Shown here one piece after another: positions 581 through 61,482 of a DNA stretch of 64,000 nt. The translations under genes were made by a program, and so were the position numbers. The stretch is from an uncultured Clostridia bacterium (GTDB lineage: Bacteria > Bacillota > Clostridia > TANB77 > CAG-508), in contig CALXBY010000003.1 in assembly GCA_944386675.1 (NCBI GenBank), positions 17,689 to 81,688 on the forward strand, read 5' to 3'. The stretch's first letter is position 1. Each line of letters starts with the position of its first letter. The notes under the pieces were generated by a model, which did no database searches, had not been told where the DNA came from, and saw only the letters and a program-made list of their open reading frames with translations.

Positions 581-703
581 TAGGGACGTGCCAAATCGTT
601 TCAAAATGAAACCAAAAGGGACAGACCCCATTACTTATTAATCTCTTAAACATTTAGGTCTGTCCCTTTTGGTTTCATTTTGAAACGATTTGGCACGTCC
701 CTA
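581..703. mobile_element. MITE-like element, family 1, minimal copy: two perfect 45-bp inverted arms (GGGACGTGCCAAATCGTTTCAAAATGAAACCAAAAGGGACAGACC) around a 29-bp spacer, flanked by TA
   Basis: Arms 583-627 and 657-701 are exact reverse complements; TA at 581-582 and 702-703; lies exactly between prmC stop (704) and whiA RBS. Confidence 0.8.
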
Positions 704-1558
704 TTAGTTCAATTTTGTTACGATGACTCTGTCATTATCATATAAATCTTTTTTGCAGTATGTTCCAACATATTGTTTTTTATCTTCTATAATTTTTATA
801 ACTTCTTCTTTTTGATCATATCCTATTTCTAAACAAATATATCCTCCATATTTTAAATATTGATAGCCTTGGTCTATGATTTTTCTATAAAATTCTAATC
901 CGTCTTTTCCTCCATCTAATGCTACTTTTGGTTCTCTTTTTACTTCTTTATCTAATTTTTCAATCTCTTCACTTCTTATATAAGGAGGATTTGAAACAAT
1001 GATATCATATTTTTCTTGTGCTAAATCTTGAAATAAATTAGATTCTACAAATGTAATTCTATCTTGTACATGATTATTTTTTGCATTTGCAATAGCTATA
1101 TCTAATGCTTTTCCACTAATATCTAAAGCTGTTAACTGTACATTTTCTAAATATTTTGCCAGAGAAATAGCAATTGCCCCACTACCTGTACATAAATCTA
1201 ATATCTTTTTTGCTTTTATTTTTTTTGCTATTTGAATTACTTCTTCTACTAAAACTTCTGTATCTTGTCTTGGTATTAATACATTTTCATCTACATAAAA
1301 ATTCAGTTTCATAAATTCTTTTTGATGTGTTATATGCTCTATTGGCTCTCCTTGTTTTAATAATTCAATATATTCTAAATATTCCTGTTCCTGCATCTGT
1401 GTTAATTTTTGGTTATCATATACAATTAAATATTGTCTTGGCTTTTTTAAAACATATTGCAATAATAATCTTGCTTTTAATTTGGGTGATGTTATTTTCT
1501 CTAATTTTAATAATGTTACTCCTTTTATCATCGCTTGTTTAATTGTCATATGATACAC
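704..1558 (-). CDS. prmC: release factor glutamine N5-methyltransferase PrmC/HemK
   Basis: 284 aa; LDLCTGSGAIAISL SAM motif and NPPY catalytic motif. Confidence 0.9.
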   Translation of the reverse strand: MYHMTIKQAMIKGVTLLKLEKITSPKLKARLLLQYVLKKPRQYLIVYDNQKLTQMQEQEYLEYIELLKQGEPIEHITHQKEFMKLNFYVDENVLIPRQDTEVLVEEVIQIAKKIKAKKILDLCTGSGAIAISLAKYLENVQLTALDISGKALDIAIANAKNNHVQDRITFVESNLFQDLAQEKYDIIVSNPPYIRSEEIEKLDKEVKREPKVALDGGKDGLEFYRKIIDQGYQYLKYGGYICLEIGYDQKEEVIKIIEDKKQYVGTYCKKDLYDNDRVIVTKLN

Positions 1559-1687
1559 CTTCTTTCATAAAGAATCCCTCTTTTTTGTTTCGTTTACTGT
1601 AATTATTCTATCATTATGTATATAAAAAAACAAGGACAAATCTCGTTTTTTATTGTATAGGAAATTACTTTTATATAATAAAAAAAA

Positions 1688-1900
1688 GCCCCGCCTTAGC
1701 CGTCAGCTTTTTAATTTTTAAGGACCTGCTCCTAAAAACAGGTGGGTGCCTACCTAAATACTTATGGGCTTCTCACTTTTATAATGTGAGCTTGCACGCC
1801 ATATTCCAGAGATCAGCCCCTCTTAAAATTTGTTGGTTCTAAAAATTATGCTCTTACGTACTATGCAGGGATTTCATGTAATCCTTATTAGATTATCTAT
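1688..1900 (-). ncRNA. GC-rich island (~210 nt) in AT-rich non-coding DNA; candidate structured RNA of unassigned class, strand uncertain
   Basis: No ORF in 1559-2104; local GC far above surroundings; on the minus strand the segment ends in GGCGGGGC followed by a T9 run (terminator-like) ~100 nt upstream of prmC; several short hairpins (GGATTtcatgtAATCC, CTCACttttataaTGTGAG). Confidence 0.25.
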
Positions 1901-2104
1901 ATATTAACATATCTAAATACTTTTTACAACTGCCTTTTTCTTTTTTAATTATACCTTTTCTTTATTTATATTATTTTATCTCACTTTTTCATATTTATTC
2001 TCTTTTTCTTTCCTTTTTCTTAACTTGATTTTAAACATAAATTATGTTAAAATATATTTATATTTGTGAGTATTTGGAGGCTTTGATGCCTTCTTTTTTT
2101 GTTC

Positions 2105-2780
2105 TTACATGACATATAATAATATGCAGAAAAATTGTAATATGCTACCTAATAATATAAACATATGAAAAATAGAATGCATCCATTTATGTTTTTTTCC
2201 AACACCATAAAGAATCGCTCCTATAGAATAAGCAATTCCTCCTGCTAATAATAGGCTAAATCCTGCTATTCCTAATAATGATGGTAATAAATTTATTTTT
2301 ACAATAATACACCATCCCATGACCAAATAACATATCATTGAAAACTTTTTATATTTCTTTATATCAATTGAATTTAAAATAATTCCTAATATCGCCATAG
2401 CCCATATAATTCCAAATATCGTCCATCCGGGTTGCTGTATCATATTCTCTTAAAGTACATAATGCAAATGGTGTATAAGAACCTGCTATTAGCAAAAATA
2501 TAGAGCAATGGTCTAGCACCTGAAATACTCTTTTAGAATATCTCTTTGGACTTAGTCCATGATAAATACTAGACATAGTATATAATATAATCATTGTAGC
2601 ACCATAAATTGCACCACTAACTACTCCATATGCATTTCCTCTAATTGCTGCAAATACAATACACAAAACTGTTGCAACAATTCCTAAAGCTGCACCTACA
2701 ATATGTGAAGTCATATTAAATATTTCTTCACCTTTTGTATATTGGGGTAATATTCTATCTTTTAATTTGATTCTATTCAT
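2105..2780 (-). pseudogene. hemolysin III / PAQR family membrane protein, apparently frameshifted (two overlapping ORFs 2364-2780 and 2105-2443)
   Basis: N-terminal ORF MNRIKLKDR...YTPFALCTLRE and C-terminal ORF ...QQPGWTIFGIIWAMAILGI together match HlyIII topology; frame change near 2440-2460. Confidence 0.5.
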
Positions 2781-2970
2781 ATTTTTCTCCTATATTTTAA
2801 TCATATTCTTAAATATAATTTGTACACATTTTTTATATTTACAATTTATAGTTTTTTGTCATTTCTATATCTGTTGCTATTATAACATTTTCATACATGT
2901 AAGTAAATAAATATATAATAATTACTCTTCGCAGTTTTTTCTATATTATGACATTCTTTTTTATTTATAA

Positions 2971-3846: not shown

Positions 3847-3854
3847 TCCTCCTA

Positions 3855-3890: not shown

Positions 3891-3894
3891 TTTT

Positions 3895-6720: not shown

Positions 6721-6735
6721 TTTTCCTCCTTTTGT

Positions 6736-6953
6736 CCAATTGAGAGATTTTGAGGGATTTTGGGGACGGACTCATTTTTCCCTTTTTTAGTTTAAAAAAT
6801 CGATTATATATAAGTTCTGTATATGTAAATTTAACTTAAAAAAACAAGTTCGTTATACATAAAACCATCTAATGATATTATGTTTCTATACTTATTAATA
6901 CAAAAAGGGAAAAATGAGTCCGTCCCCAAAATCCCTCAAAATGCCTCAATTGG
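6736..6953. mobile_element. MITE-like element, family 3: ~47-bp near-perfect terminal inverted repeats (CCAATTGAG[a/g]GATTTTGAGGGATTTTGGGGACGGACTCATTTTTCCC) around a 123-bp AT-rich core
   Basis: 6736-6782 versus reverse complement of 6907-6953 differ only at 6745-6748 (GAGAGATT vs GAGGCATT); sits between ligA stop (6958) and the RBS of the 84-aa ORF. Confidence 0.75.
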
Positions 6954-6957
6954 ATAT

Positions 6958-8976: not shown

Positions 8977-9061
8977 TTATTCATTTAGGGTCCATCGGGG
9001 ACGTTTCTTTTTGGACATTTTTTGTATTTTTTCTTTCTTATTATATACAAATGGAATAAAA

Positions 9062-12234: not shown

Positions 12235-12330
12235 TCCTTTCTGAATGTTTTATAATTATCATTCTCTCTAAAATATGTACTCTATTTTAAGCATTATTTA
12301 TTATAAGATTCTCCATCTTTATTACCAAAG

Positions 12331-12364
12331 AATTGCCAAAATGGCCCGTCCCCTTTGGCAACTT
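12331..12364. repeat. family-2 palindromic repeat GTTGCCAAAATGGCCCGTCCCCTTTGGCAAC (REP-like hairpin), 2 bp after the stop of the UDP-sugar pyrophosphorylase gene
   Basis: 8-bp stem TTGCCAAA/TTTGGCAA with GGCCCGTCCCC loop; identical copies at 54173, 54243 and 61452. Confidence 0.8.
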
Positions 12365-12365
12365 T

Positions 12366-13613
12366 TTAGCTGTTCCTATTCCAATATTTTTCATATAATT
12401 CTTTCGCTGTTTTTGGGCTATCTTCTCCATCTTTATTTTTCACTGGAGCAAAATCATCTTCTCTTTTTCCTCTTAATATAGCTATATCATCAAATAATTC
12501 AAATGCATCAAAGATAAATGATTCGAATTTATATGAATTTGGCTCTGTTGGAATAACTTCTTTTCCTTCTTCATCTATGTATGAATTCTTTTTAAAAGCA
12601 CTATGATAAATTAGGGTTTCTTTACTAATTTTCTCTATTGCTTCTATTGTATATAAGTTACACATGATATGGGCTTCTCCATATTTTAGCTCTCCATCTT
12701 CATCCACTTCTTCTGCCATTTTTTCTGGTAATTCTGTATACTCAATAACTTTTGGATGTCCATTCATTTTTCCAAATACCCCAACTCTTTCATGTGCATT
12801 TGCTTTTACAATTGATTTTGAAGCAATTTGTACTTTTTTCTTAATTGCCATTCCTAATAAAATGGTATCTGCCATTTTTAGTAAAGCATTATCAACGCCT
12901 CCAATAAATACCCATTTGATTCCTTTTTCCTTCATTTCTGCCAATGCTCCACTTGCTCTTAATGAAGAATATGTTCCACCATTTCCATCAGATGCTTCTT
13001 TTATTTTCATATCTTTTCCAACTAATAATTTTCCATTTATATCTAACAAAGGTAATTCACTTTGTGCAAAAAATCTTACTGAATCTTTATCATATCCAAA
13101 ATAGTTGTTTTTTTCCATGAATTGTATTGTTTCTTCGTTGTTTTCTTTACTTGTCATTATATACCATGGAATTACTTTTTCATATTTTTGATTTGCTTCT
13201 TTTAAATTTTCTGCTAATATTTCAAATAAGTATTTTCCTTTTCCATATACATCTAATTTAAATGTCCCTTTAGGTCCTGAATGTCCTAATCTCGTTCCTT
13301 GCCCACCTGCCATTGTAACAACTGCATATTCACCTTTTCTTAGAACTTCTTCTCCTAATTTTTGAAATTCTTCTCTTTGTTCTTCTGATAATTTCTTCTT
13401 ATCCATATATGGTAATGGTTCTATTTTATTTTCCTTTATTACTATTTCTTTTTTTGTACTATCATATAATTCTTTTAGCTGATGAAAATCTATTTTACTA
13501 ATTTGCTCTATCAATTCTTGTTTTTTATCTTCGTCTAATTTTTCTAACAAATTTATAATATGTTCTTGATTATAAACTCTTAATAGGTCTATTGTATCTT
13601 GTACTTTATCCAT
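12366..13613 (-). CDS. UDP-sugar pyrophosphorylase, eukaryotic-type UDPGP family (UDP-GlcNAc/UDP-Glc pyrophosphorylase-like)
   Basis: 415 aa; MAGGQGTRLG nucleotide-binding signature of the UDPGP family. Confidence 0.75.
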   Translation of the reverse strand: MDKVQDTIDLLRVYNQEHIINLLEKLDEDKKQELIEQISKIDFHQLKELYDSTKKEIVIKENKIEPLPYMDKKKLSEEQREEFQKLGEEVLRKGEYAVVTMAGGQGTRLGHSGPKGTFKLDVYGKGKYLFEILAENLKEANQKYEKVIPWYIMTSKENNEETIQFMEKNNYFGYDKDSVRFFAQSELPLLDINGKLLVGKDMKIKEASDGNGGTYSSLRASGALAEMKEKGIKWVFIGGVDNALLKMADTILLGMAIKKKVQIASKSIVKANAHERVGVFGKMNGHPKVIEYTELPEKMAEEVDEDGELKYGEAHIMCNLYTIEAIEKISKETLIYHSAFKKNSYIDEEGKEVIPTEPNSYKFESFIFDAFELFDDIAILRGKREDDFAPVKNKDGEDSPKTAKELYEKYWNRNS

Positions 13614-13939: not shown

Positions 13940-15418
13940 ATGGAAAATACAAGATTGTATCAAGACATCGCAAAAAGGACTGATGGGGATATTTATGTAG
14001 GTGTTGTTGGTCCTGTGAGAACTGGTAAATCTACTTTTATCAAAAGATTTATGGATTTACTAGTCATTCCAAATATTGATAATGAATACAAAAAAGAAAG
14101 AGCAAAAGATGAACTGCCACAAAGTGCTGGTGGCAGAACTATTATGACAACAGAGCCAAAGTTTGTTCCAAATGAGGCTATTGAAATTACTTTAAATGAT
14201 AATCTAAAATTTAAAACCAGGCTTGTTGATTGTGTTGGTTATTTAGTAGATAATGCAATTGGCTATTTAGAAGATGATATGCCTAGAATGGTTAAAACAC
14301 CTTGGTCTGAAGAAGAAATTCCTTTTGAAACTGCTGCTGAAATTGGAACAAAAAAAGTTATTGAGGAACATTCTACTATAGGTATCTTAGTTACTACTGA
14401 TGGAACAATTACTGACATTCCAAGAGAAGATTATATTAAAGCTGAAGAAAGAGTTGTAAATGAATTAAAAGCTTTAAACAAGCCTTTTATTATTTTACTA
14501 AATTCAAATGACCCTGATTCTGACTATACGAAAGAGCTTGCGGAAAACTTAAGCAAAAAATACAATACTTCTGTTATGCCTCTTAATTGTGAATATCTAA
14601 CCATTGAAGATATTAATACAATGTTTTCTAAAGTATTATATGAATTTCCTGTTGACCAAATTTGTATTAAATTTCCTAGATGGATTGATGGATTAGATAT
14701 ATCACATCCTCTAAAAACAGAATTATATAAAGAAATTAAAGATGCATTTTCTAATGTAAATGTTTTAAAAGAAATCTCAGGTTGTGTAGAAACTATCAAG
14801 CAAACAGAAATCATTTCAAAAACTTCTATAACAGACATTCAACTAGGAACTGGAAAAGTAAATGTTGAAATCACCTTAAAAGAAGAATTATTCTATCAAG
14901 TACTTTCAGAAATTACAGGTGTTACAGTTTCTAATGAAGGTGATTTATTTAGTATCATTTCTGAATTAGCTGATGTGAAAAAGAAATATGATAAAATTGC
15001 CTACGCCTTAGATGAAGTTAATAGAAAAGGTTATGGAATCGTTACACCTTCAATGGATGAATTAATTCTAGAGGAACCAGAAATGGTAAAACAAGGCTCT
15101 AAATTTGGAGTAAAACTAAAAGCAATGGCACCTTCTATTCATCTTATCAAAACAAATGTGGCAACAGAAGTATGCCCAATTGTTGGTTCTGAAAAACAAT
15201 CAGAAGAACTAGTAAATTATCTATTATCCGGATTTGAAAGTGACCCTCAAAAAATCTGGGAATCTAATATCTTTGGAAAGAGTCTACATGAATTGGTAAA
15301 TGAAGGTTTACAAACCAAACTTGCAAAAATGCCAGAAGAAGCTCAAATTAAACTACAAGAAACTTTAGAAAGAATTGTTAATGAAGGCAGTGGTGGACTA
15401 ATTTGCATTATCCTTTAG
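13940..15418 (+). CDS. spoIVA: stage IV sporulation protein A (spore-coat morphogenetic ATPase)
   Basis: 492 aa; GVVGPVRTGKSTF Walker A at N-terminus; length and composition typical of SpoIVA. Confidence 0.9.
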   Translation: MENTRLYQDIAKRTDGDIYVGVVGPVRTGKSTFIKRFMDLLVIPNIDNEYKKERAKDELPQSAGGRTIMTTEPKFVPNEAIEITLNDNLKFKTRLVDCVGYLVDNAIGYLEDDMPRMVKTPWSEEEIPFETAAEIGTKKVIEEHSTIGILVTTDGTITDIPREDYIKAEERVVNELKALNKPFIILLNSNDPDSDYTKELAENLSKKYNTSVMPLNCEYLTIEDINTMFSKVLYEFPVDQICIKFPRWIDGLDISHPLKTELYKEIKDAFSNVNVLKEISGCVETIKQTEIISKTSITDIQLGTGKVNVEITLKEELFYQVLSEITGVTVSNEGDLFSIISELADVKKKYDKIAYALDEVNRKGYGIVTPSMDELILEEPEMVKQGSKFGVKLKAMAPSIHLIKTNVATEVCPIVGSEKQSEELVNYLLSGFESDPQKIWESNIFGKSLHELVNEGLQTKLAKMPEEAQIKLQETLERIVNEGSGGLICIIL

Positions 15419-15423
15419 TCCGT

Positions 15424-15469
15424 TAGGGACGTGCCAAAATAGACATTTTTTGTCCCAAAGGGACACACC
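15424..15469. repeat. degenerate solo copy of family-1 arm (TA + GGGACGTGCCAAAAT...GTCCCAAAGGGACACACC), 5 bp after spoIVA stop
   Basis: first 17 nt and last 13 nt match the family-1 arm ends; internally deleted. Confidence 0.6.
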
Positions 15470-15543
15470 TTATCTCTATAAGTTAGAAAAAGTCAATTGT
15501 ACACATTATTTTTTCTAACTTATATGTAAGGCTACACTATAAA

Positions 15544-18035: not shown

Positions 18036-20339
18036 ATGGAGGAACTTATGGAACAAGATATCTTAAAAACAAATAGAGCAAAATTATTATCTGATTTTAT
18101 TAATGAAATGAAACTATCTATTAAAAAACATAATATAAAAGGAGAATTACCTAGTAAAACATATATCTATACAAGAATTGCAGATTATACACATTATGCA
18201 GAAGTAAGTATCCGAAAATTTTTAACTGGTAGTATTCCAAAAGACATTCCTAGTTTTCTTCAAGGAATTTTAGAATATGCAAAATTGATACAAGTAGATG
18301 ATTCTAAAATTGATGCATTTGCTAAAAATTATTTATCTGCTACGAATACAGTTGTTTTTCAGGATGCAACTATCCAAACAAAAAACAACCTAATTCCTCA
18401 AGACTTAAGCAAAATTATTCGATCTCAAAAACTAACTTCGTTTTTAGATGATTTTATCAATCATCCTATTAATATTGCTTATATTTATGGATATAAATTA
18501 GGTGGAAAATCAAAATCTGTTATGGCATATATGTATGATTTGAGCTTAAAAAATAAATTTGAAAATATGATTTGGATCAATCTAAAAAAGGAAAATCAGC
18601 TATCTACTATTTTAGATACCATTTTGCTTTTCAATTTAGAAAATAAAGCAGAAATCAAACCTGAAGAAAAACAAGATACTTGTCTTGAGTTTATAAAAAG
18701 CACGAAATCTATCCTTATATTAGATTTTGATGATGACATTATCCAAGATGAAACCTTTACATTTGTAAAAAACTTTTCTAAATTTTCAAAAATAGTAATG
18801 ATTACTTCTGTCCCTTATTATCAATATGAAAATCAGTTAGATACCTATTGTTCTAGTTTCTGTATTAATGACTTCATTTCTAAGGAAGAATTAAAAGCTA
18901 TGCTTCATACAACAGAAAATTTTAGAAAAATTATAGATATGCAACCTTCATTAGTTGATACATTATATTCCATTACTGGTGGCATTCCATTTGCCTCTAT
19001 CTATCTAATGAAAAAAATTGTAAGTGTCAATAAACTAGGCGTTTCTTTAGAAAATGCCATTTCTAAATATACAAAAACAAATGAAGATTATAAAATCATG
19101 TCAGAAAAAATCATTCATGATATATGGAAAGAATTAAGTCCAATCGCAAAAAAAATACTCATCATTTGTGCAAATTTTAAATATACCATCTCGATTGAAC
19201 TTGTTTCCTACATATTACATTTAGATATATTATCTAATGAGTGGCAAGAAGCAATTACAGAATGTTATACAAATGATTTATTGATACCTATTATCCAAAA
19301 TCATCCAAGACTTGATATGCACAATTTAATAAGAACACTTGTCTTAGTAAATGCATCTGAAGAAGATTTTAATAAAGAAACATTTTTAAAACAATTAGCA
19401 AAGTTTTATATAGATAAGTCTGCCTATGTGGGTGAATGTTATAATGATATTTCTAAATTAAAATTATTTGATGAGTTAGATGAATGGAACATTACAAAAC
19501 AAGTATTAAATATGTTAGAAGAAAATAAATTATATAAAGAATATATTACGATAATTAGAAATTTAAAATACTACATTTATGTTAGAGGTATGTGGGAAAA
19601 AGGAGAAGATTCTCCACATTTAAAAAGAGCAAAAATGGCAAATATGATTGAAGATAAAAATGAAGAATTAGAAGCTTTGTGTGATTATATTAATATTATG
19701 TCTAAATCACAAAATCAAGAAGAAGCAAAAAAATATTTAGATATTGCTTCAAAAATTATTGAAAAAGAAAAAGATTCTTTAGAAAAACGTATTGTTTGCT
19801 TATTTTATCATGTAAAAGCTCTGTACACTTGTAACTGTTTAAAAAATTACAAAGAAAGTTATGACATATGGATCAATATTAAAGAAAACTATTTTCCTTA
19901 TATTAATGAATATAGAAAATTGGTAACAGATTTATGGATTACCAGATGCTATTTAAAAATTGAAAATGATTTTAAAGCAAAATATGATATGCTAGTTAAT
20001 CGTCTAAAAGATGCAAAAACAGCAAACTTTACTCGTGGTCAAGCAGATTATCATCTTTTACTCATCTCGCTTCTATTAGAACATTTTTCTATCACGCAAG
20101 ATGTAAAATTCTTAAAAATGGCAAATACAAAATTACATACTTGTGAACAATTTTTAAAAGATAATGATTCTTATGATATTCGAAATGAAGCTTTATATTA
20201 TCGTCTAAGAGCTATTTATTATACATACAACAATGATTTTACACAAGCTCAAGAAGTTGCTCAAAAAGCAATTAAAGATTACCAAATAATGAATTGCAAA
20301 AAAGATATTGAGAGTTTACTTGAAATTTTAGATAAATGA
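18036..20339 (+). CDS. STAND-class NTPase: N-terminal XRE-like HTH, NB-ARC-type P-loop module, C-terminal TPR-like helical repeats
   Basis: 767 aa; Walker A GYKLGGKS, Walker B ILILDFDDD; N-term ...LPSKTYIYTRIADYTHYAEVSIRKFLTGS HTH-like; start may be Met5 at 18048 (GGAGG 6 nt upstream). Confidence 0.6.
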   Translation: MEELMEQDILKTNRAKLLSDFINEMKLSIKKHNIKGELPSKTYIYTRIADYTHYAEVSIRKFLTGSIPKDIPSFLQGILEYAKLIQVDDSKIDAFAKNYLSATNTVVFQDATIQTKNNLIPQDLSKIIRSQKLTSFLDDFINHPINIAYIYGYKLGGKSKSVMAYMYDLSLKNKFENMIWINLKKENQLSTILDTILLFNLENKAEIKPEEKQDTCLEFIKSTKSILILDFDDDIIQDETFTFVKNFSKFSKIVMITSVPYYQYENQLDTYCSSFCINDFISKEELKAMLHTTENFRKIIDMQPSLVDTLYSITGGIPFASIYLMKKIVSVNKLGVSLENAISKYTKTNEDYKIMSEKIIHDIWKELSPIAKKILIICANFKYTISIELVSYILHLDILSNEWQEAITECYTNDLLIPIIQNHPRLDMHNLIRTLVLVNASEEDFNKETFLKQLAKFYIDKSAYVGECYNDISKLKLFDELDEWNITKQVLNMLEENKLYKEYITIIRNLKYYIYVRGMWEKGEDSPHLKRAKMANMIEDKNEELEALCDYINIMSKSQNQEEAKKYLDIASKIIEKEKDSLEKRIVCLFYHVKALYTCNCLKNYKESYDIWINIKENYFPYINEYRKLVTDLWITRCYLKIENDFKAKYDMLVNRLKDAKTANFTRGQADYHLLLISLLLEHFSITQDVKFLKMANTKLHTCEQFLKDNDSYDIRNEALYYRLRAIYYTYNNDFTQAQEVAQKAIKDYQIMNCKKDIESLLEILDK

Positions 20340-20375
20340 TTTTTAAGTAAAAACAATGTAACATTTCTAGTATTC

Positions 20376-20407
20376 GCAAAAACCCGAAGGGTAATTCCCT
20401 TCGGGTT
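20376..20407. terminator. GC-rich hairpin terminator shared by the convergent STAND gene and the orphan gene
   Basis: AACCCGAAGGG TAATT CCCTTCGGGTT; T-run on the minus-strand reading. Confidence 0.7.
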
Positions 20408-20409
20408 GC

Positions 20410-21495
20410 TTAATTGTATGTTTCCACGGGTTCAGCTGGTTCCACTAAGATTTTTATCAGCTGAAGCCTATTTTCAATTGATTCTTCCAAATCTTCATTA
20501 TTAGATCTGGAAATTTGGAGAGCGTCTCCTTTATATTTGGCTAAAATCTTTATTTTATTATTATCATCAAATTTTGCCAAAAATAAATTACCTTTTCGAT
20601 CTCCGATTTCATAATAAGCAATATTACCAACGCTTCCCAAGCACGTAAGTCTGCTTCCAGGAATTGAATATATTATGGGTTTTCCATTTGATGTTGACAG
20701 GGGTAGTTCCAATATTTCTCCAGTGTCCTTGCCTTTTATTGTAGCTATATATACATTTGCTACTTCATCAATCGGCTCAACATTATCCCATTCGCCCAGC
20801 CACTCTATAATGCCACTTTCTTTTGTGACTTCGTAAATTTTCCATTTACCATTGTTCAGTGGTTTATTTACTTGAAATCGGTTGGGAATACTTGACGAAA
20901 TATCCTGCTTATAGCCCTCAAATCTTTTTTGAAATGGCTCAGAAATAACTATTTTCTCATCTCTAAGGTACACATATTTAAAGCCTTTCCCGTCAAGCAT
21001 TTCTATTCCAGCATTCATAACTGGGTGGCCCCACTTCTCAAAAGGTCGAATGCTTCCATCAATTTCAGATATTTTCCCTGAAGAAATCCATAACATTTTA
21101 CTATACATGTTTCTCCTATTCTCTTGGAATAGGAGACCTTCTGTTCCATAAGACTGAAACCAATGGAAACCTGCTAATTCTTGAATTTCAACAACTTCAG
21201 ATTTGTTTTTCCATTTTTTAAACACCTTGTCACCGGTAGAAATTAGCAGATATTCTTCATTTTGTCCAGTTTTTATTACTTCATAATGAAATTTGGGATC
21301 TTTACGAAATGGTGCCAACAACATTTCTTTCTCTTCATCAATTATGGTCTCCTCTAATTCATCAGATTCGTTTTGCCTCTGCACAATAGAAATACCATAT
21401 TCCTTAAGAAGCTCATCTTTGTTATACCAATACCCTCCTAAATTTTCCATCCGCAGATACTTACAAGATTTTCCTTTTACCTTTTTTAATAACAT
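20410..21495 (-). CDS. hypothetical protein, no recognised domain, compositionally GC-shifted relative to neighbours
   Basis: 361 aa from ATG at 21495 (AGAGGA RBS); the track ORF starts at an upstream TTG; local GC visibly higher (CCACGGGTTCAGCTGG, GGGTGGCCCCACTTC). Confidence 0.5.
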   Translation of the reverse strand: MLLKKVKGKSCKYLRMENLGGYWYNKDELLKEYGISIVQRQNESDELEETIIDEEKEMLLAPFRKDPKFHYEVIKTGQNEEYLLISTGDKVFKKWKNKSEVVEIQELAGFHWFQSYGTEGLLFQENRRNMYSKMLWISSGKISEIDGSIRPFEKWGHPVMNAGIEMLDGKGFKYVYLRDEKIVISEPFQKRFEGYKQDISSSIPNRFQVNKPLNNGKWKIYEVTKESGIIEWLGEWDNVEPIDEVANVYIATIKGKDTGEILELPLSTSNGKPIIYSIPGSRLTCLGSVGNIAYYEIGDRKGNLFLAKFDDNNKIKILAKYKGDALQISRSNNEDLEESIENRLQLIKILVEPAEPVETYN

Positions 21496-21596
21496 ACTTT
21501 TTCCTCTCTTTCTCGCCAAATAGGCTTAAAATTGGTTACAGTTCTTAACTTGCGCTAGTATATCATAAAAATAACTCTTTTTCAATCTTATGTAAC

Positions 21597-22616
21597 TTAA
21601 AGATTCTTTCTCCTTAATTGCCCACATGCAGCATCAATATCTGATCCTAGTTCTCTTCGAATGGTCGCAACAATTCCATGGTCATTTAAATAATCTCTAA
21701 ATTTCATGATGTTTTCATTTGAGCTTTTGGTATAAGTTCCATTTTCTATTTTGTTAATTGGAATTAAATTTACATGACAAAGCATTCCTTTTAGTAGTTT
21801 TACTAATCTTTTTGCATCTTCTAAATTATCATTATTTTCTTTTGCTAAGGCATATTCAAAAGAAATTCTTCTATGTGTTTTTTCTATGTAATCCTTGCAT
21901 GCTTGTAATAATTCTTCTATATTATATGTATTATTTACTGGCATCATTTTACTTCTTTGTTCATCTGTTGTTGCATGCAAAGAAATAGACAAAGTACATT
22001 GTATATTTTCTTCTGCCAATTGATATATTTTAGGTACTAAACCACTTGTAGATATACTAATATGTCTAGCACCTATATTTAATCCTTTAGGATGATTGAT
22101 AATTCGAATTGCTTTTACGACATTATCATAATTGTCTAATGGTTCTCCTATTCCCATAAATACAATATTAGAAATTCTAACACCTGAATCTCTTTCTACT
22201 GCCATAATTTGTTCTATAATTTCTCCTGTACTTAAATTTCTGGCAAATGGAATTCCTGTTGAGGCACAAAATTTACATCCCATTTTGCATCCAATTTGTG
22301 AAGAAACACAAATACTATATCCATGATGATATTGCATCAATACAGTTTCAATTGCATTTCCATCTAATACATCAAATAAATATTTTTTTGTTCCGTCTGA
22401 TGCAACTTGTTTTTTTAATATTTTAAATTCTTTAATTTCATAGACTTGTTTTAATTTTTCTCTTAATTCTAATGATAGATTTGTCATATCATCAAAATCA
22501 GATACTCTTGCTTCATAAATCCATTTATAAATTTGTTCTGCTCTAAATGGTTTTTCTCCGATTTCTTTTAGTTCTTCTTTTAATTCATCTAATGCATAGT
22601 CTTTGATATTTTTCAT
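21597..22616 (-). CDS. rlmN: 23S rRNA/tRNA adenine C2-methyltransferase RlmN (radical SAM)
   Basis: 339 aa; CKMGCKFCAS radical-SAM CxxxCxxC, C-terminal ...DIDAACGQL. Confidence 0.9.
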   Translation of the reverse strand: MKNIKDYALDELKEELKEIGEKPFRAEQIYKWIYEARVSDFDDMTNLSLELREKLKQVYEIKEFKILKKQVASDGTKKYLFDVLDGNAIETVLMQYHHGYSICVSSQIGCKMGCKFCASTGIPFARNLSTGEIIEQIMAVERDSGVRISNIVFMGIGEPLDNYDNVVKAIRIINHPKGLNIGARHISISTSGLVPKIYQLAEENIQCTLSISLHATTDEQRSKMMPVNNTYNIEELLQACKDYIEKTHRRISFEYALAKENNDNLEDAKRLVKLLKGMLCHVNLIPINKIENGTYTKSSNENIMKFRDYLNDHGIVATIRRELGSDIDAACGQLRRKNL

Positions 22617-24703: not shown

Positions 24704-25891
24704 TTAACATGTCTCATTTAGAAACGTCCCCAATTGGACATCTGCCATTTTTTCCATTTGTGCTATATTTTCATCACTCATTGTTGATTTTATTGTTATT
24801 ATTGGGTCAATCATATTTATATTTTTCATTTCTTCTAATATTCCCTTCATACATTTCCCAGCTGAAGGTGCCCATGAACCATTTTCTATAATTCCTACTG
24901 TTCTATTTTGATAATTTCTTTCTTTTAAATGTTCTAAAAATTGTTTCATTGGTGGGAATAATCCCGCATTATAGCTAGAAGATGCAACAATTAAATGTGA
25001 ATATTTAAAAGCTTCTCCTACCGCCTCTGCCCAATCTTTTTTAGTTAAATCTGCTAAAACAACCTTTTTTGCACCTTTTTCTTTTAAAATTTCTTCCATC
25101 TTTTTAGCCGCTTTTAAGGTATTTCCATAGATAGAACTACAAGCTATATAAATTCCTTCTTCTTCTGGCTTGTAACTACTCCATGTATTATATTTTTCTA
25201 TATAATATCCTAAATTTTCTTTTAAAATTGGTCCATGTAAAGGGCATATCATTTCAATGTCTAAAGTTGCTGCCTTTTTTAATAATGCTTGTACTTGCAT
25301 TCCATATTTTCCGACAATTCCAAAATAATATCTTCTTGCTTCTTCATTCCATTCTTCATCTACATCTAGTGCACCAAATTTTCCAAATCCATCTGCTGAA
25401 AATAGTATTTTTTCTGTTTGTTCATATGTTACCATAACTTCTGGCCAGTGTACCATTGGTGCCATAAAGAATTGTAGTTTATGGTTTCCAATATCTAATA
25501 CATCACCTTCCATAACAACAAATTTTCTATTAGAAAAATCAATTTCTTTGAAGAAATTTGCAAGCATATTAAAGGTAAGTTGATTTCCGACCACCTTCAT
25601 ATCTGGATATTTTTTCGCTAATATTCCTATATTATATGCATGGTCTGGCTCCATATGAGAAACAATTAAATAATCTGGTTTTTCTCCATCTAATGCTTTT
25701 TCTAAATTTTCTAACCATTTGTCTGTTAATTTTTCATCAATTGTGTCTAGCACTACATTTTTCTCATCTTTTATTACATATGAATTGTAACTCATTCCGT
25801 TTTTTAATACATATTGATTTTCAAATATTTTAAGATTTTTATCACTTGCTCCTATATGGATAATATCCTTTGAAATTGTCATATCTGCCAT
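24704..25891 (-). CDS. flavodiiron protein (FprA-type; metallo-beta-lactamase-like diiron domain + flavodoxin domain), O2/NO detoxification
   Basis: 395 aa; HxExDH-type diiron motif LIVSHMEPDHAYN, C-terminal flavodoxin-like segment. Confidence 0.85.
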   Translation of the reverse strand: MADMTISKDIIHIGASDKNLKIFENQYVLKNGMSYNSYVIKDEKNVVLDTIDEKLTDKWLENLEKALDGEKPDYLIVSHMEPDHAYNIGILAKKYPDMKVVGNQLTFNMLANFFKEIDFSNRKFVVMEGDVLDIGNHKLQFFMAPMVHWPEVMVTYEQTEKILFSADGFGKFGALDVDEEWNEEARRYYFGIVGKYGMQVQALLKKAATLDIEMICPLHGPILKENLGYYIEKYNTWSSYKPEEEGIYIACSSIYGNTLKAAKKMEEILKEKGAKKVVLADLTKKDWAEAVGEAFKYSHLIVASSSYNAGLFPPMKQFLEHLKERNYQNRTVGIIENGSWAPSAGKCMKGILEEMKNINMIDPIITIKSTMSDENIAQMEKMADVQLGTFLNETC

Positions 25892-25925
25892 TTTTCATTC
25901 TCCCTTTCTAAAACTCTCTAATATT

Positions 25926-27629: not shown

Positions 27630-27751
27630 TTGTTATTTTCCCCCTTTTTATTTTCCTTTTCAAATTTTATCATAATAATTTATTTTTGTACACCTTTTGT
27701 TGTTTTTTATTGTATAGAAAAAAAATGAACTTTAAGGACTGTCCCTAAAGT

Positions 27752-37993: not shown

Positions 37994-38314
37994 TTATGAA
38001 ACTTCTAAATTCGTTATTGGAATTAATCTCAATATTCCACTCATTTCAAATATTTTTCTAATACTACTTGTTAAATTGGCAAGTTCAACAGTTCCTCCTA
38101 GCATTTTTACAAATTTATATCTTCCAATAATCAAACCTATCCCTGCGCTATCCATGAATGTAACACTATTAAAATCAAATATAACTTTTTTAGGCATATA
38201 TCTTTCAATTTCATAATCCGCCTTCCTCCTTATCTTTTGAACACTAAAATCATCAATTTCATCAGTTATTTTAAAAATTAATAACTTGTCCTCTTCGTAA
38301 AATTTTGATTCCAT
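37994..38314 (-). CDS. spoIIAA: anti-sigma F factor antagonist SpoIIAA (STAS domain)
   Basis: start at internal MESKFYEED; FMDSAGIGLIIGRYK STAS phosphorylation-site region; the track ORF's 42-aa N-terminal extension runs into the repeat and is rejected. Confidence 0.8.
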   Translation of the reverse strand: MESKFYEEDKLLIFKITDEIDDFSVQKIRRKADYEIERYMPKKVIFDFNSVTFMDSAGIGLIIGRYKFVKMLGGTVELANLTSSIRKIFEMSGILRLIPITNLEVS

Positions 38315-38428
38315 TATAGCCTCCTTTAAAATTCTTCTTGTATTATATTTCTTTTTCCAATATTTTCCAAGAGTAAAAAATAAGAAGTTTTGTCGTTTTA
38401 TAAGAAGTTTTCGACAAATGAAACAATT

Positions 38429-38491
38429 GGGACGTGTCAAATCATTTCAAAACGAAACAAAAAGGACAGGCATCCTGCCTGTCCCTTTTGG
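38429..38491. repeat. family-1 element remnant: one diverged arm (GGGACGTGTCAAATCATTTCAAAACGAAACAAAAAGGACAGG) plus the first 16 nt of the opposite arm
   Basis: alignment to the 45-bp family-1 arm; lies between GH13 stop (38520) and spoIIAA start. Confidence 0.7.
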
Positions 38492-40634: not shown

Positions 40635-40681
40635 GGTCTGTCCCTTTTGGTATCATTTTGAAACGATTTGGCACGTCCCTA
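40635..40681. repeat. family-1 solo right arm (45 bp, 43/45 identical to consensus) + TA, ending 4 bp before the ytfJ stop codon
   Basis: GGTCTGTCCCTTTTGGTATCATTTTGAAACGATTTGGCACGTCCC TA. Confidence 0.8.
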
Positions 40682-54150: not shown

Positions 54151-54172
54151 TTTTTGTTCCTCTTTTCTAAAA

Positions 54173-54203
54173 GTTGCCAAAAGGGACGGGCCATTTTGGC
54201 AAC
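54173..54203. repeat. family-2 palindromic repeat (inverted orientation) in the 5' leader of the EndoQ-like gene
   Basis: GTTGCCAAAAGGGACGGGCCATTTTGGCAAC. Confidence 0.8.
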
Positions 54204-54242
54204 TTTCTTTCTATAATTAACTAATAATTTTTCCTAAAAAAA

Positions 54243-54283
54243 ATTGCCATTTTAGCCCGTCCCCTTTGGCAACTTTTGGCAAC
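54243..54283. repeat. family-2 palindromic repeat with duplicated 3' half (TTTTGGCAAC x2), terminator-like for the 54289 gene
   Basis: TTGCCATTTTAGCCCGTCCCCTTTGGCAACTTTTGGCAAC followed by T7. Confidence 0.8.
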
Positions 54284-54288
54284 TTTTT

Positions 54289-55092
54289 TTAATTGTTTTC
54301 CTTTTTTAATTTCTCACCTTGTATATTCTCTTCTGCTATATGTGCTAATATTTTTCTTGTTGTTTCTTCACTAAATAATGGCCTATTAGAATCTTTAAAC
54401 ATTTCTTTTTTTATTTCATTTCTGTATTTTTGAACAGCTTTATCTACTTTAGATTCATATTCATAACATACTTTTTTTATGAATTCTTTTATATTTTCTG
54501 ATTCATTATGTATTTTTACTAAACGTCTTAAAGATTTCATTGATGTTAAATCACTTAGTTCTACTTGTTCCATCATTTGAACAAATTCTCCAAATGTGTG
54601 TAAAAATCGATTATACTGTCCTTTCAAATTTCTGTGTTCTAATAATACCATAGCTTCATCTGGCTGAAATCCTATTCTTTCTGGTCTATCTAATAGCATT
54701 CCTCCAAATTGGTCTACTAACTCTAAGACGTCACTTTCTCTTTCTCTTGGATTGCTATTACTATATCTGTTAATTTCTTCACACATTTTACAAAACTTAC
54801 GGTCAAATCCTAATGTTAATAAATAATCTGCTCCTTCTTTTGCATATGAATGAATTTTTTCTAAATCTTGTGCATTGTCTACTTTTTTACAATTACATAA
54901 TAGACATGCTGTTAATACTAAGTTTTTGTCTACATCTATTTTCATGTAGTCTATAAACATTCTGGCAATTTCTGTTTTGAAAATAACAGATTTGTCAAAA
55001 AATATTCTTGTCTTTTTTGCTAAATAATAGGTGATTTCCATTTTAGCTGCTAAATCTTGTTCATCTAAAATGTAATTAGCAAATGTATCCAT
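54289..55092 (-). CDS. hypothetical protein (Cys-rich helical; no confident assignment)
   Basis: ORF 276 aa, probable start at MDTFANY. Confidence 0.4.
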   Translation of the reverse strand: MDTFANYILDEQDLAAKMEITYYLAKKTRIFFDKSVIFKTEIARMFIDYMKIDVDKNLVLTACLLCNCKKVDNAQDLEKIHSYAKEGADYLLTLGFDRKFCKMCEEINRYSNSNPRERESDVLELVDQFGGMLLDRPERIGFQPDEAMVLLEHRNLKGQYNRFLHTFGEFVQMMEQVELSDLTSMKSLRRLVKIHNESENIKEFIKKVCYEYESKVDKAVQKYRNEIKKEMFKDSNRPLFSEETTRKILAHIAEENIQGEKLKKENN

Positions 55093-55259
55093 ATGCTTCC
55101 TCCTTTGTTCAAGTTTCATACAATTTTATTATATATGAATAAAGGAGTTTTTTCAATATTTTTTTTGAATGTAATGGAAATGTAATATAATTTTTTAATT
55201 GTATTTTCCTGTAATATATAGTATAATACTATTTGAAAATATTCATTTAGAGGTATATT

Positions 55260-55724: not shown

Positions 55725-55748
55725 ATAATTATGTATTGGAGGATCACA

Positions 55749-56885
55749 TTGAAAATATTAAGTATAGAAACTTCTAGTAAAATATGTAGTGTCGCAATAT
55801 TAGAAGATAAAAATTTAGTAAAAAAAATTGAATTAAATAATGGATTAACACATTCAGAAACATTAATGCCACTCATTAAACAAATATTAAATGAAACAAA
55901 TTTAAATTTATCTGACATGAATTTACTCGTTTGTGATATTGGACCAGGTTCTTTTACTGGTATTCGAATTGGTGTTGCAACAGTAAAAGCTTTCACTGAT
56001 AGTTTGCAAATTCCTTCTGTTGGCATTAGTTCTCTTGAAGGATTAGCTTATAATATTAAAGATGATGGTCTTATCTGTAGTATTATCGATTGTAAAAACA
56101 ACAATTGTTATTATGCTTTATATGAATTAAAAAATGATACATATACATTATTAGAAGCACCTAAAGCAGATAGCGTCCAAAATTGTTTAAATTTTTTTAA
56201 TTATAAATATGCAAATTCTAAAATCACTTTTGTTGGAGATGGCTCTATTATTTACAAAAATGTAATAGAAAATATATCTTCAAACTTTGTTTTTGCTAAT
56301 ACAAATTTTCCAGATAATGAACTTAATATGATTGATGTATATAATTTAGGAATTGCTGGAATGAATAAATATACCAAATATGGAGCAGATGAAAATCTAC
56401 TACCTCTTTACTTAAAAAAGCCTCAAGCACAAAGACAGCTAGAAGAAAAAAATATTGTTATAAAAGATATGAACATTTCTGATTTAGAAAATTTAGACAT
56501 TTCTAAATTTGATGATTTCTGGAATATCGATATTTTAAAAGATGAATTAAATAGTGAAAATTCTAAATTTGTCTGTGCCAAACTAGAAAATACAGTTATT
56601 GGTTTTGCTGGTATTAAAATTATTTTAGACGAAGCTGATATTATGAATATAGCTGTTATGAAAAATTACAGAAGACAAGGTGTTGCAACTTTACTCCTAA
56701 ATCATATCTTTAATATTTGCAAAGAAAAAAATATTGAAACCCTAAATCTTGAAGTTAATGAAGAAAATTTTTCTGCCATCTCTTTATATCAAAAATTCGG
56801 TTTTAAAGAATGTGGCAGAAGAAAAAAATATTATGATAACAAATATGATGCGATTTTAGGGACGTGCCAAATCGTTTCAAAATGA
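55749..56885 (+). CDS. TsaB (t6A biosynthesis, inactive Kae1 paralogue) fused in one frame to a RimI-type GNAT acetyltransferase; last 9 codons and stop supplied by the family-1 repeat
   Basis: TTG start with GGAGG 6 nt upstream; N-term LKILSIETSS...CDIGPGSFTGIRIG (TsaB); C-term ...AGIKIILDEADIMNIAVMKNYRRQGVATLLL... (GNAT motif A); terminal ...AIL|GTCQIVSK* read from repeat sequence. Confidence 0.75.
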   Translation: MKILSIETSSKICSVAILEDKNLVKKIELNNGLTHSETLMPLIKQILNETNLNLSDMNLLVCDIGPGSFTGIRIGVATVKAFTDSLQIPSVGISSLEGLAYNIKDDGLICSIIDCKNNNCYYALYELKNDTYTLLEAPKADSVQNCLNFFNYKYANSKITFVGDGSIIYKNVIENISSNFVFANTNFPDNELNMIDVYNLGIAGMNKYTKYGADENLLPLYLKKPQAQRQLEEKNIVIKDMNISDLENLDISKFDDFWNIDILKDELNSENSKFVCAKLENTVIGFAGIKIILDEADIMNIAVMKNYRRQGVATLLLNHIFNICKEKNIETLNLEVNEENFSAISLYQKFGFKECGRRKKYYDNKYDAILGTCQIVSK

Positions 56886-57186
56886 GACCAAAAGGGACAG
56901 ACCTATTTATATAGAAGTATAACAAAATTAAAATATTATATTTCTTAATTTATTACATTCCTCGGCTAACATTGCATCATAAAGAAAAACTAAAAGTATC
57001 TAATAGGCACCGCTCAAAATCAAGTTTTGAGATTCTCCTATTAGATACTTTAATTTTTTCTAATATGATTTCATTTGCATTCGTCATTTTATAAATTAAG
57101 AAATATAATATTTTTAATAATTTTTCTTTCTTCTAAACAGGTCTGTCCCTTTTGGTCTCATTTTGAAACGATTTGGCACGTCCCTA
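56857..57186. mobile_element. MITE-like element, family 1, full copy (~330 bp): TA + 45-bp arm ... 236-bp core with internal hairpin ... 45-bp arm + TA
   Basis: arms 56859-56903 and 57140-57184 are reverse complements (one G/A difference from copy A); TA at 56857-58 and 57185-86; right end forms the TAG stop of the S4-domain gene. Confidence 0.85.
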
Positions 57187-59858: not shown

Positions 59859-59990
59859 TTTATCACCTTTTTATACCAATTTGTGTATTCCATTTTATCA
59901 CATTTCTATGTTTTTTTCTACAAATTTGTTGTATTTTTTATATCTTGTGTTAAAATATATATGAAATCAAATTATGGGAGGAATTTATAT

Positions 59991-61343
59991 ATGAAAAAAA
60001 GTGTTTTAGTTACATTATTTTTAGTTCTAATTTTAATCGCAAACCTATCTTTTGCAACTTATGAAACAGTTACAATGGAAGTTGTTGAAGAACCTGTTTG
60101 CACAATAGAAATTGGAGAAAATTCAAAATTTGAAAAAAGACTAATCGAAAAGAATTTAAATAATAAAGAAGTTACACTTCAATTACAAGTAACCAATGAA
60201 GAAACAGCTCTGCAACCTACTGGTGAAATCATGTTAGTTATTGACAACTCAAAAAGTATGGAAGATATTGTTAGTGGAACAACTACCAGAGAAGATTTGG
60301 TTGTAGAATCCGCCAAAACTTTAGTAAATACAATTTTAGATGGAAATGAAAACTTAAGAGTAGGAGTTGTTAGTTTCTCTACAAATGAGGAAGTTTCCAA
60401 AGAAGGAACAATTGAAGATGCTACATTAGTTTCTGATTTGTCTACTGATTCACAAGCATTAGTATCTGCCATTTCTAATATACAATACACTGGACCTAGA
60501 ACAGATTTAGAATCAGGATTAAGCTTAGCTAGCCAATACTTTACAGAAGAAGATAATAATAAATATGTTATTGTTTTAACAGATGGTGTTCCAAATGTTG
60601 CTTTAAATTATGACAAAGTTTATTATTCAGATGATGTTATTAATAAAACAAAAGCACAATTACAAGCTCTAGACACTGCTGGATATGATGTTATCACAAT
60701 GCTTACAGGTATTTCTAATGCTGATGATGTTCCTGCAACTAGAGATGATGATAAAACTTATGGTGACATTATAGAAGAAATTTTTGGAACTGAAACAAAT
60801 CCAACAGTTGGTAAATTCTACTATGTACAAGATAGTGAAATTGAACAAACAATCACAGAAGATATTTATAATGACTTGTTACCAATTGAAAAAGTTTTAA
60901 CAAATATTACAGTTACAGATTATTTCCCACAAGAAATTATTGATAACTTTGAATTTGCTTATGTTTCAGAAGCCAATATCGGAACAATATCAGCCCAAGT
61001 TAATCCAGAAGATAATTCTATTACTTGGACAATCCCAGAACTAAATCCTGGAGAAACCGCAACTGTTCAATATACATTAAAATTAAAAGAAGATTTTGAT
61101 AGTAGCATTGTTGGTAAACTTCTAGATACAAACGAGAAAGTAGATATTACTTACACAGATTTTGATGGTGAACAAGTTTCTGATACCTCAGATGTTACTC
61201 CAAAATTAAGACTTACAGAACCACCAGTTGAATTACCTAAAGCTGGTACACCAATTATGATAGCTTTATTTACAGTTGGTATTGGATTATTTATTTATTC
61301 ATTTGTAAAATTAACAATAACAAATAAAAATATGAAACATTAA
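59991..61343 (+). CDS. von Willebrand factor A-domain surface protein with C-terminal LPKAG sortase-type anchor
   Basis: start at MKKSVLV (GGGAGG RBS); MIDAS VIDNSKSM (DxSxS)...LTDGVP; C-term ELPKAGTPIMIALFTVGIGLFIY...KNMKH. Confidence 0.75.
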   Translation: MKKSVLVTLFLVLILIANLSFATYETVTMEVVEEPVCTIEIGENSKFEKRLIEKNLNNKEVTLQLQVTNEETALQPTGEIMLVIDNSKSMEDIVSGTTTREDLVVESAKTLVNTILDGNENLRVGVVSFSTNEEVSKEGTIEDATLVSDLSTDSQALVSAISNIQYTGPRTDLESGLSLASQYFTEEDNNKYVIVLTDGVPNVALNYDKVYYSDDVINKTKAQLQALDTAGYDVITMLTGISNADDVPATRDDDKTYGDIIEEIFGTETNPTVGKFYYVQDSEIEQTITEDIYNDLLPIEKVLTNITVTDYFPQEIIDNFEFAYVSEANIGTISAQVNPEDNSITWTIPELNPGETATVQYTLKLKEDFDSSIVGKLLDTNEKVDITYTDFDGEQVSDTSDVTPKLRLTEPPVELPKAGTPIMIALFTVGIGLFIYSFVKLTITNKNMKH

Positions 61344-61361
61344 TAAATCTTACAAGAAAAC

Positions 61362-61424
61362 AAGGTATTTAATAAAAATTTCAAAATCAAATTTGAAAAA
61401 TATTTATTAAATACCTTATTTTTG
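61362..61424 (+). terminator. long-stem terminator after the VWA gene
   Basis: AAGGTATTTAATAAA ... TTTATTAAATACCTT then ATTTTTG. Confidence 0.5.
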
Positions 61425-61451
61425 TATATAGAAAAACTTATTTTATTAAAG

Positions 61452-61482
61452 GTTGCCAAAATGGCCCGTCCCCTTTGGCAAC
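61452..61482. repeat. family-2 palindromic repeat, 3 bp after the enolase stop codon
   Basis: GTTGCCAAAATGGCCCGTCCCCTTTGGCAAC, identical to the copy at 12333. Confidence 0.85.

Follow-up and report, generated by a model that had tools for sequence, protein, structure and literature searches.

GGGAC-box repeats at gene ends in an uncultured Clostridia bacterium: probable REP/REPIN-type elements with a RAYT-like transposase partner

What are the short G-rich repeats that crowd the 3′ ends of genes in an AT-rich Clostridia genome, and which enzyme might they belong to? The question is raised by 64,000 nucleotides (nt) of an uncultured Clostridia bacterium (GenBank assembly GCA_944386675.1, contig CALXBY010000003.1, positions 17,689 to 81,688), called the window in what follows, in which an initial annotation had noted several repeat families with a common GGGAC(G/A) core. 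We find that the repeats are very probably non-autonomous elements of the REP/REPIN type (repetitive extragenic palindromes and their inverted doublets), falling into several families, with a Y1 transposase partner that resembles the REP-associated tyrosine transposases (RAYTs). The window has 27% G+C and a strongly negative GC skew, and its − strand holds most of the genes. Sporulation and housekeeping genes present are spoIVA, spoIID, a spoIIAA-like gene, ytfJ/gerW, prmC, ligA, eno, a UDPGP gene and a tsaB-rimI fusion.

The box itself is strongly over-represented. GGGACR (R, A or G) has 31 matches in the window, versus 11.08 ± 2.94 in dinucleotide shuffles, and a count of 31 was reached in none of the 100 shuffles made. 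Non-coding DNA holds 21 of the 31, at a density of 2.27/kb versus 0.18/kb in coding DNA. Each repeat copy named in the initial annotation was found at its coordinates, and 15 arms from four families (F1, F2, F3 and F6) bear a (G)GGGAC(G/A) box within the 64 kb. The copy at 8981–9016, regarded there as a weak solo, is a genuine repeat and a member of the fourth family, F6, which has about 20 copies in related loci and the window together. The statement that all families share GGGAC holds for these four; because the element at spoIID, F4, lacks the box, it was slightly overstated.

F2, F3 and F6 are hairpins built on one plan, a stem, a GGGGACG-containing loop and the returning stem. Their sequences are GTTGCCAAA[GGGGACGKGCC]aTTTTGGCAAC for F2, AGGGAttt[tGGGGACGGACTC]atttTTCCCT for the F3 core and TGTCCAATTG-GGGACGTTTCT-GTTTGGGACA for F6, and the loops of F2 and F3 are 11–13 nt long. 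F5, seen in L104, follows the stem, box-loop, stem plan of F3 and F6 (labels L002 to L147 denote related loci, which are stretches from related metagenome-assembled genomes (MAGs) or metagenomic contigs). The F1 arm (TAGGGACGTGCCAAATCGTTTCAAAATGAAACCAAAAGGGACAGACC) has two boxes, GGGACGTGCC and GGGACAGACC, one on each side of an internal hairpin, and in some MAGs the F2 loop is GGGGACGTGCC, a 10-mer identical to F1 box 1. The internal hairpin of F1 is found with at least six different stems (GTTTCA/TGAAAC, TGGACA/TGTCCA, GTTCAA/TTGAAC, GTACAA/TTGTAC, GTTCCA/TGGAAC and others) in which pairing is kept, that is, by compensatory change. Arms occur solo or in inverted doublets, which are predominantly head-out and whose spacer most commonly measures about 28 nt. 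The doublets are predicted to fold into very stable structures (−89.4 kcal/mol, z = −18.6, for 581–703; the F2 doublet 54169–54277 reaches −61.6 kcal/mol).

The initial annotation had proposed a search for a co-occurring transposase, and a RAYT-like Y1/HUH gene was found between inverted F1 arms in three MAGs (L007, L065 and L055). It is an open reading frame (ORF) of about 250 amino acids placed between ileS and an ABC transporter gene. L065 comes from the same MAG as L067, which is 85–91% identical in nucleotide sequence to the window and among its closest relatives found. The L007-type protein matches Pfam Y1_Tnp with 36 bits (cutoff 23), and its best NCBIfam model is the REP-associated tyrosine transposase (E = 4.7e-17). 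At its C terminus there is a helix-turn-helix (HTH) domain (HTH_11, 28.5 bits against a cutoff of 25; HTH_24 and HTH_3 match more weakly, residues 216–251). The HUH motif (NHxH) and the Y-x-x-N-N-P-V motif (YIxNNPV) are invariant among 20 homologues. A search of the Protein Data Bank with a single RAYT sequence gave no match; a profile of homologues was required, and its best structure was E. coli TnpA-REP (4ER8, E = 8e-4).

The association between box and enzyme extends far beyond the nearest relatives. Orthologues occupy the ileS-ABC locus over an identity range of 100% to 46%, and GGGAC-box repeats are found beside them even at the lower end. Paralogues lie at folD-dprA, at HSP20-CBAH and next to uvrB, where the flanking hairpins have unrelated stems and the same loop box. 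F2-like hairpins flank paralogues in L116, L118 and L122 (one flank reads TGCCAAAG-GGGACG-TAGCAC-TTTGGCA), and F3-like ones do so in L147. We then have 53 usable metagenomic loci of relatives, with 25–55% identity and 24–54% G+C, which were scanned for GGGACR within 350 nt upstream of the transposase gene and its complement downstream, with reversed motif orientation as control. The forward box is upstream in 36 of the 53 (7 reversed) and the complement downstream in 43 (6 reversed), and both flanks are boxed in 33, versus 4 in the control. The flanks share a design, a variable stem, then (G)GGGACG-GTTC..., then the complementary stem, with a position logo of G (0.74), GGGAC, G (0.79), G, T, T, C. 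Two forms of the box make up the set, GGGGACGG (79%) and GGGGACAG (21%), and the next position is G at 0.62. Upstream of the RAYT paralogue in L109 (5850–5900), a CGCACATCG-GGGACG unit occurs as three tandem copies ahead of the hairpin, a small array of the box.

The same box stands around transposase genes whose flanking stems are unrelated. At the genomic level, therefore, (G)GGGAC(G/A) marks the hairpins found next to the genes of one clade of RAYT-like Y1 (HUH) enzymes, which end in an HTH domain. The suggestion of one GGGAC-recognizing protein thus stands in that the box brackets transposase genes, and gives way in that paralogous enzymes appear to be involved, each with a hairpin family of its own. 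Each paralogue would bind its own hairpin in single-stranded DNA, with the variable stem giving specificity and the conserved GGGGACG loop serving as the common determinant of binding or cleavage. The enzyme would copy arms, singly or as head-out inverted doublets, into new sites, and copies would survive where transcription continues past a stop codon, up to the terminator or the next ribosome-binding site (RBS). Binding and cleavage by the enzyme, like current mobility, are what we infer from this arrangement.

To our knowledge, REPIN-RAYT systems have been studied almost solely in Proteobacteria. The repeats here resemble those of Gammaproteobacteria (the E. coli REPs and bacterial interspersed mosaic elements with TnpA-REP, and the Pseudomonas REPINs) in being short, high-copy extragenic palindromes that form head-out doublets, in having several families per genome, and in the presence of a syntenic Y1/HUH gene bracketed by inverted copies. 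They also lie downstream of genes and supply a stop to the neighbouring ORF, as REP termini with GTAG often supply TAG to the flanking ORF (PMC3733652). They differ in their host, an AT-rich spore-forming Clostridia lineage, in an enzyme that has a C-terminal HTH and falls below the NCBI cutoff for RAYT equivalogs, and in a fusion to stop codons much stronger than in E. coli, where about 11% of REPs lie within 15 nt of a stop (RepRanger, PMC12306157).

A closer counterpart may be the TIRYT group. Di Nocera (2013) reported TIRYT genes, which are RAYT-like and have inverted repeats with GGGGWSAS on their flanks; some of these repeats form moderately abundant dispersed families arranged as dimers, and no Firmicutes are mentioned (PMC3733652). 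Quentin (2018) equated TIRYT with TnpA-Y1 subclass 2.1, which has C-terminal HTH domains, mapped Group 1 of Bertels onto it, and reported no REP-like hairpins beside subclass 2.1 genes (PMC6006769). Bertels (2017) found that RAYT Group 1 occurs in Clostridia, with only low-abundance flanking words (PMC5581495). TIRYT, RAYT Group 1 and TnpA-Y1 subclass 2.1 are probably one group. No RAYT group is larger than Group 1, and among the TnpA-Y1 subclasses 2.1 ranks second in size. Like the TIRYTs and their TIRtrons, the system here has a RAYT-like enzyme with a C-terminal HTH and flanking inverted repeats with a GGGG-type motif; the minority box GGGGACAG and F1 box 2 (AGGGACAG) fit GGGGWSAS. It differs from them in that clear hairpins with a loop box flank the genes (33 of 53 loci), and Firmicutes and Clostridia are absent from the repeat examples that the source papers name. 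By its described features, rather than by phylogeny, the system fits the TIRYT group in enzyme architecture and nearly so in motif.

Other mobile elements share single features with these repeats. Elements of the IS200/IS605 family (IS608, ISDra2) likewise have a Y1 HUH enzyme with Pfam Y1_Tnp, recognition of single-stranded hairpins and a conserved short sequence by the hairpin. An IS200/IS605 element was considered and rejected: here there is one gene per locus, apparently single and syntenic, with housekeeping neighbours and no tnpB, the brackets are inverted instead of being hairpins on the same strand, and the gene is outnumbered by hundreds of non-coding copies. The CGTC-tagged REPs and the Rickettsia RPEs come to mind because GACG in the box is CGTC on the other strand, and the copy at 24710–24740 lies in frame inside a gene, as RPEs do. 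With these and with bacterial miniature inverted-repeat transposable elements (MITEs; Correia/NEMIS, RUP and ERIC; PMC3733652) the repeats share copies against or inside ORF ends and doublets that fold into long transcript hairpins. Unlike the repeats here, the CGTC REPs have their tag unpaired at one stem end and no associated transposase, and the bacterial MITEs have DDE-type terminal repeats and target duplications.

Several observations weigh against a REP/REPIN-type system with a RAYT-like partner. The score of the protein against NCBIfam REP_Tyr_transpos, 62 bits, is under the curated cutoff of 80, and we therefore call it RAYT-like and not an equivalog. No RAYT gene lies within the 64-kb window, and the link rests on related species at 85–92% nucleotide identity. 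For F2 and F3, cognate enzymes turned up only in other organisms, with stems that are related and not identical, and none was found for F6 among the loci examined. Classical REPs have GTAG at the stem foot; no GTAG is conserved here, and the box GGGGACG is in the hairpin loop. The majority box GGGGACGG departs from the TIRYT motif GGGGWSAS at one position (position 7, G in 79%). As RNA, a solo F1 arm shows no notable structure (z = −0.47). Comparisons of filled and empty sites yielded no recent insertion with clean junctions, owing to divergence of the downstream spacers, and the element ends given here are accordingly approximate and present movement conjectural.

The borders of F1 could also be read quite differently. 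If the repeats were MITEs of a DDE transposase (IS630/Tc1-like) that duplicates TA, the junctions TA-GGGACG...CGTCCC-TA would be target-site duplications, and doublets 581–703 and 56857–57186 do have TA at both borders, while T is conserved at position −2 in 99% of F1 copies. At position −1 (A or G), however, the two arms agree in 17 of 18 doublets, with TTG/TTG as frequent as TTA/TTA; the position is therefore part of the inverted repeat and not of a duplicated target. Conservation runs 10 nt outward of the first box (consensus TGRAMCRTTR); solo arms are as common as doublets; and no DDE transposase was found between arms, the Y1 transposase being the only transposase gene found bracketed. 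We reject the TA-duplicating MITE, which is highly improbable given that the flanking TTA/TTG covaries between arms with no direct duplication. The outer 10 nt also occur on distal arms beside RBSs, and the two arms agree at 8–10 of the 10 positions in 8 of 18 doublets; in others the extension is replaced, and the outer boundary of F1 is fuzzy. In filled and empty pairs it partly matches native coding sequence (gatB TTGAAA, L101 ATTTA). We also considered that the extension always pairs with the internal hairpin of F1, giving an F2-like plan, and dropped the idea; the pairing is present only in some copies.

Could the repeats simply be intrinsic terminators that share a G-rich stem segment by chance? 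The hairpins 27727–27753 and 38458–38490 are terminator-like and contain GGGACAG, and T runs follow F2 and F3 hairpins. These two hairpins are the only ones that qualify as intrinsic terminators; F1 arms have no T tract and fold weakly, separate terminators come after several copies, and some arms sit inside operons directly against the next RBS. The box is in the loop, not the stem, and the loops of F2 and F3 have the 11–13 nt given above. Near-identical sequences of 45–55 nt in at least 25 species are likewise hard to reconcile with chance sharing, and we give the terminator explanation hardly any credence.

REP/REPIN-type elements as we describe them sit remarkably close to stop codons. The initial annotation held that copies crowd gene 3′ ends, and eleven window loci bear this out, their element-to-stop distances spanning −29 to 11 nt: 0 for prmC, 3 for ligA, −1 for the UDPGP gene, 5 for spoIVA, 4 for ytfJ/gerW, 2 for eno, −3 for an S4-domain gene (whose stop is the TAG of TAGGGACG), −29 for tsaB-rimI, −2 for the ABC gene at 27752, −2 for spoIID, and 11 for the gene at 54289, measured to the F2 element (about 1 if the partial copy 54278–54287 is counted). 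The enrichment was then compared with a placement model in related genomes, where each F1 cluster is one site placed uniformly in the leftover spacer. The stop is within 5 nt of the element or inside it at 70 of 101 F1 sites, versus 22.3 expected (standard deviation 2.4), and at 51 of 72 versus 16.8 after orthologues are collapsed. Short spacers do not account for the bias: among sites with at least 60 nt of other spacer the figures are 47 of 70 versus 3.3, and 34 of 49 versus 2.4 for the collapsed set. F2 behaves like F1 (11 of 12 sites within 11 nt).

The position of the stop relative to the repeat is also precise. Among 130 exact-pattern F1 arms, the upstream co-directional ORF takes its stop from the TAG of TTAGGGACG in 37 and from the opening triplet of the extension (TGA, TAG or TAA) in 18, and the stop is within 15 nt of the arm in 81. 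With co-directional genes on both sides of F1, the gap to the stop has a median of −0.5 nt and the gap to the start one of 78 nt. The outer 10 nt of F1 and the first G of the box read TGAAACGTTA followed by G, and the element holds stops in all three frames (TGA at −10, TAG at −2 and TGA 27 nt in). An insertion in the last one to three codons would therefore be harmless, which would explain why the stop codon is so often inside F1. Such passive tolerance alone is too little to produce so large a bias, and there must be a contribution from preferential insertion, from turnover at existing REP sites or from a selected 3′-end function. Distal doublet arms often run straight into the Shine-Dalgarno sequence of the next gene, as CGTCCC-[C/T]AAAGGAGG (window 573–582; L002, L043, L056 and others), and in such cases the repeat occupies the entire spacer from stop to RBS inside operons.

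Selection at the RNA level deserves separate consideration. The repeats might be functional 3′-untranslated-region modules spread or positioned by selection (protein-binding sites, mRNA stabilizers, modulators of termination, RNase III sites), with the transposase secondary. Copies lie upstream of separate terminators, between these and the stop codon, and are therefore transcribed; solo F1 arms are in sense orientation in 35 of 47 cases; the stem covariation suits RNA hairpins no less than DNA ones; a transcribed doublet would give a very long double-stranded RNA; and E. coli REPs less than 16 nt from a stop lower translation (PMC12306157). An mRNA function, on the other hand, does not predict that the same box should bracket transposase genes in inverted orientation across 24–54% G+C, and the distal arms and some solo arms are antisense. 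Nor did a scan of the window with Rfam, at gathering and permissive thresholds, return any repeat family: the long hairpins gave only sub-threshold miRNA-like matches, which are spurious, and the sole true match was a 6S RNA gene (RF00013, 91 bits; 1684–1874, − strand) directly 3′ of prmC. As a full account the RNA module is improbable, though less so than the two preceding alternatives; it is compatible with REP-type elements of a RAYT-like enzyme and may explain their retention at stop codons.

As to the cause of the stop-codon preference, we infer one tentatively. The attachment may possibly be active, with a transposase specific for single-stranded DNA directed to ORF ends, or with stop-adjacent copies kept because they tune termination, ribosome release or 3′-end stability. 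Targeting could come about where the non-template strand is exposed as the ribosome-free transcript begins, or through homology to the outer TGAAAC-GTTA segment. The same gene ends have been taken up repeatedly by families independent of one another. Attached solo arms are 43 on the leading versus 4 on the lagging strand, a ratio confounded with gene orientation, as 79% of genes are leading.

Taken along the window, the individual copies illustrate these arrangements. The first is a perfect 47-nt inverted F1 doublet with a 29-nt spacer, whose distal arm (581–627, +) adjoins the RBS of the next gene (start 564, −) and whose other arm (657–703, −) is proximal to prmC, with the stop TAA (704–706) inside the 10-nt outer extension TGAACTAATA. 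F3 forms a 220-bp element with a distal arm at 6735–6787 (+; core AGGGAtttt-GGGGACGGACTC-atttTTCCCT) and an arm at 6902–6954 (−) 3 nt from the ligA stop. The F6 copy 8981–9016 (+; GGGTCCATCG-GGGACGTTTCT-TTTTGGACA) is antisense to its neighbour genes and 22 nt upstream of the ligA start. A solo F2 hairpin (12333–12366, −; GTTGCCAAA-GGGGACGGGCC-ATTTTGGCAA) shares 1 nt with the TAA that ends the UDPGP gene. An F1 variant at 15424–15470 (+), or 15416–15470 with its outer extension TAGTCCGTTA, provides the spoIVA stop TAG as the first triplet of that extension.

A second F6 copy (24710–24740, −) lies in frame in the last 11 codons of a metallo-beta-lactamase-fold gene (24704–25891). The protein ends in ...VQLGTFLNETC*, and the copy is an intragenic REP like the Rickettsia RPEs. 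The intrinsic-terminator hairpin 27727–27753 (−; TGAACTTTAGGGAC/GTCCTTAAAGTTCA then T8), whose first triplet TGA is the stop of the ABC-transporter gene, may derive from F1; its membership is uncertain. A degenerate F1 arm (38427–38473, +) with a clipped inverted partner makes up 38427–38491, and their box-2 parts pair to give the terminator-like hairpin 38458–38490 for an amylase-family gene. The listed TTG start of the spoIIAA-like ORF (37994–38440, −) falls inside this degenerate arm; because the family match begins only at residue 46, the true start is probably about 130–140 nt downstream. The solo F1 arm 40635–40681 (−) is 4 nt past the ytfJ/gerW stop, a TGA that is the first triplet of the extension TGAACAATA, and a separate terminator hairpin comes after it.

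Further along, F2 forms an inverted doublet (54169–54202, +, and 54243–54277, −) followed by the extra partial copy 54278–54287, which reaches the stop of the gene 54289–55119. An inverted F1 doublet (56857–56903, +, and 57140–57186, −) lies between convergent genes; its left arm contains the TGA of tsaB-rimI and its right-arm TAG is the stop of the S4-domain gene. The tsaB-rimI ORF (55731–56885, +) runs 29 nt into the left arm, so that its protein ends in nine repeat-encoded residues, LGTCQIVSK. A solo F2 copy (61450–61483, −) is 2 nt past the enolase stop and upstream of a bidirectional terminator common with the convergent gene. F4, the separate element without the box, is a palindrome of about 210 bp with perfect 37-nt terminal inverted repeats and an inner hairpin around CTAATAGG; its copy at 35469–35676 overlaps the spoIID stop by 2 nt, and a diverged second copy (56913–57131) is nested in the spacer of the F1 doublet 56857–57186.

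How widely are the repeats spread, and do they change places? The two-box F1 pattern, scanned over one genome per species to give counts that are lower bounds, is present in more than 106 stretches from at least 25 uncultured Clostridia/Eubacteriales MAGs with 25–34% G+C; F2, F3 and F6 occur in the flanks of F1 loci from related MAGs. The nearest syntenic loci among those compared, L057, L067 and L090, are 85–92% identical to the window in nucleotide sequence, and none is identical. The F1 copy at 15424 has an orthologue in L057, and the doublet 56857–57186 has orthologues in L090 and L026; other copies differ. At the end of the UDPGP gene, L057 has a mere 15-nt spacer where the window has F2 (12333–12366). 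The ligA end has F3 in the window and F1 in L073, the gatB end has F1 in L077 and F5 in L104, and other gene ends swap F1 for F2 or F6, or F1 for F3, between species. In the filled and empty comparisons the protein end is kept within about two codons. L067 is without two genes of the window, that for a 369-amino-acid ORF with no Pfam match (20330–21602) and a DUF6583 gene (25910–27753), and has an F1 doublet at the first of these sites. Several synteny breaks coincide with repeat sites, among them also 12240–12378 versus L057 and 61345–61496 versus L064 and L070.

What is new here is that one Clostridia lineage combines distinct hairpins whose loops hold the box, a number of abundant REPIN-like families and an unusually tight fusion to stop codons. 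For the enzyme clade, the constant GGGGACG loop in a variable stem, seen across very different genomes, is a concrete and testable recognition motif. For the repeat-transposase partnerships, their vertical inheritance would be extended to Gram-positive gut anaerobes. For the hosts, housekeeping genes have their terminal codons and stops replaced by repeat sequence, which affects gene calling and 3′-end annotation in such MAGs.

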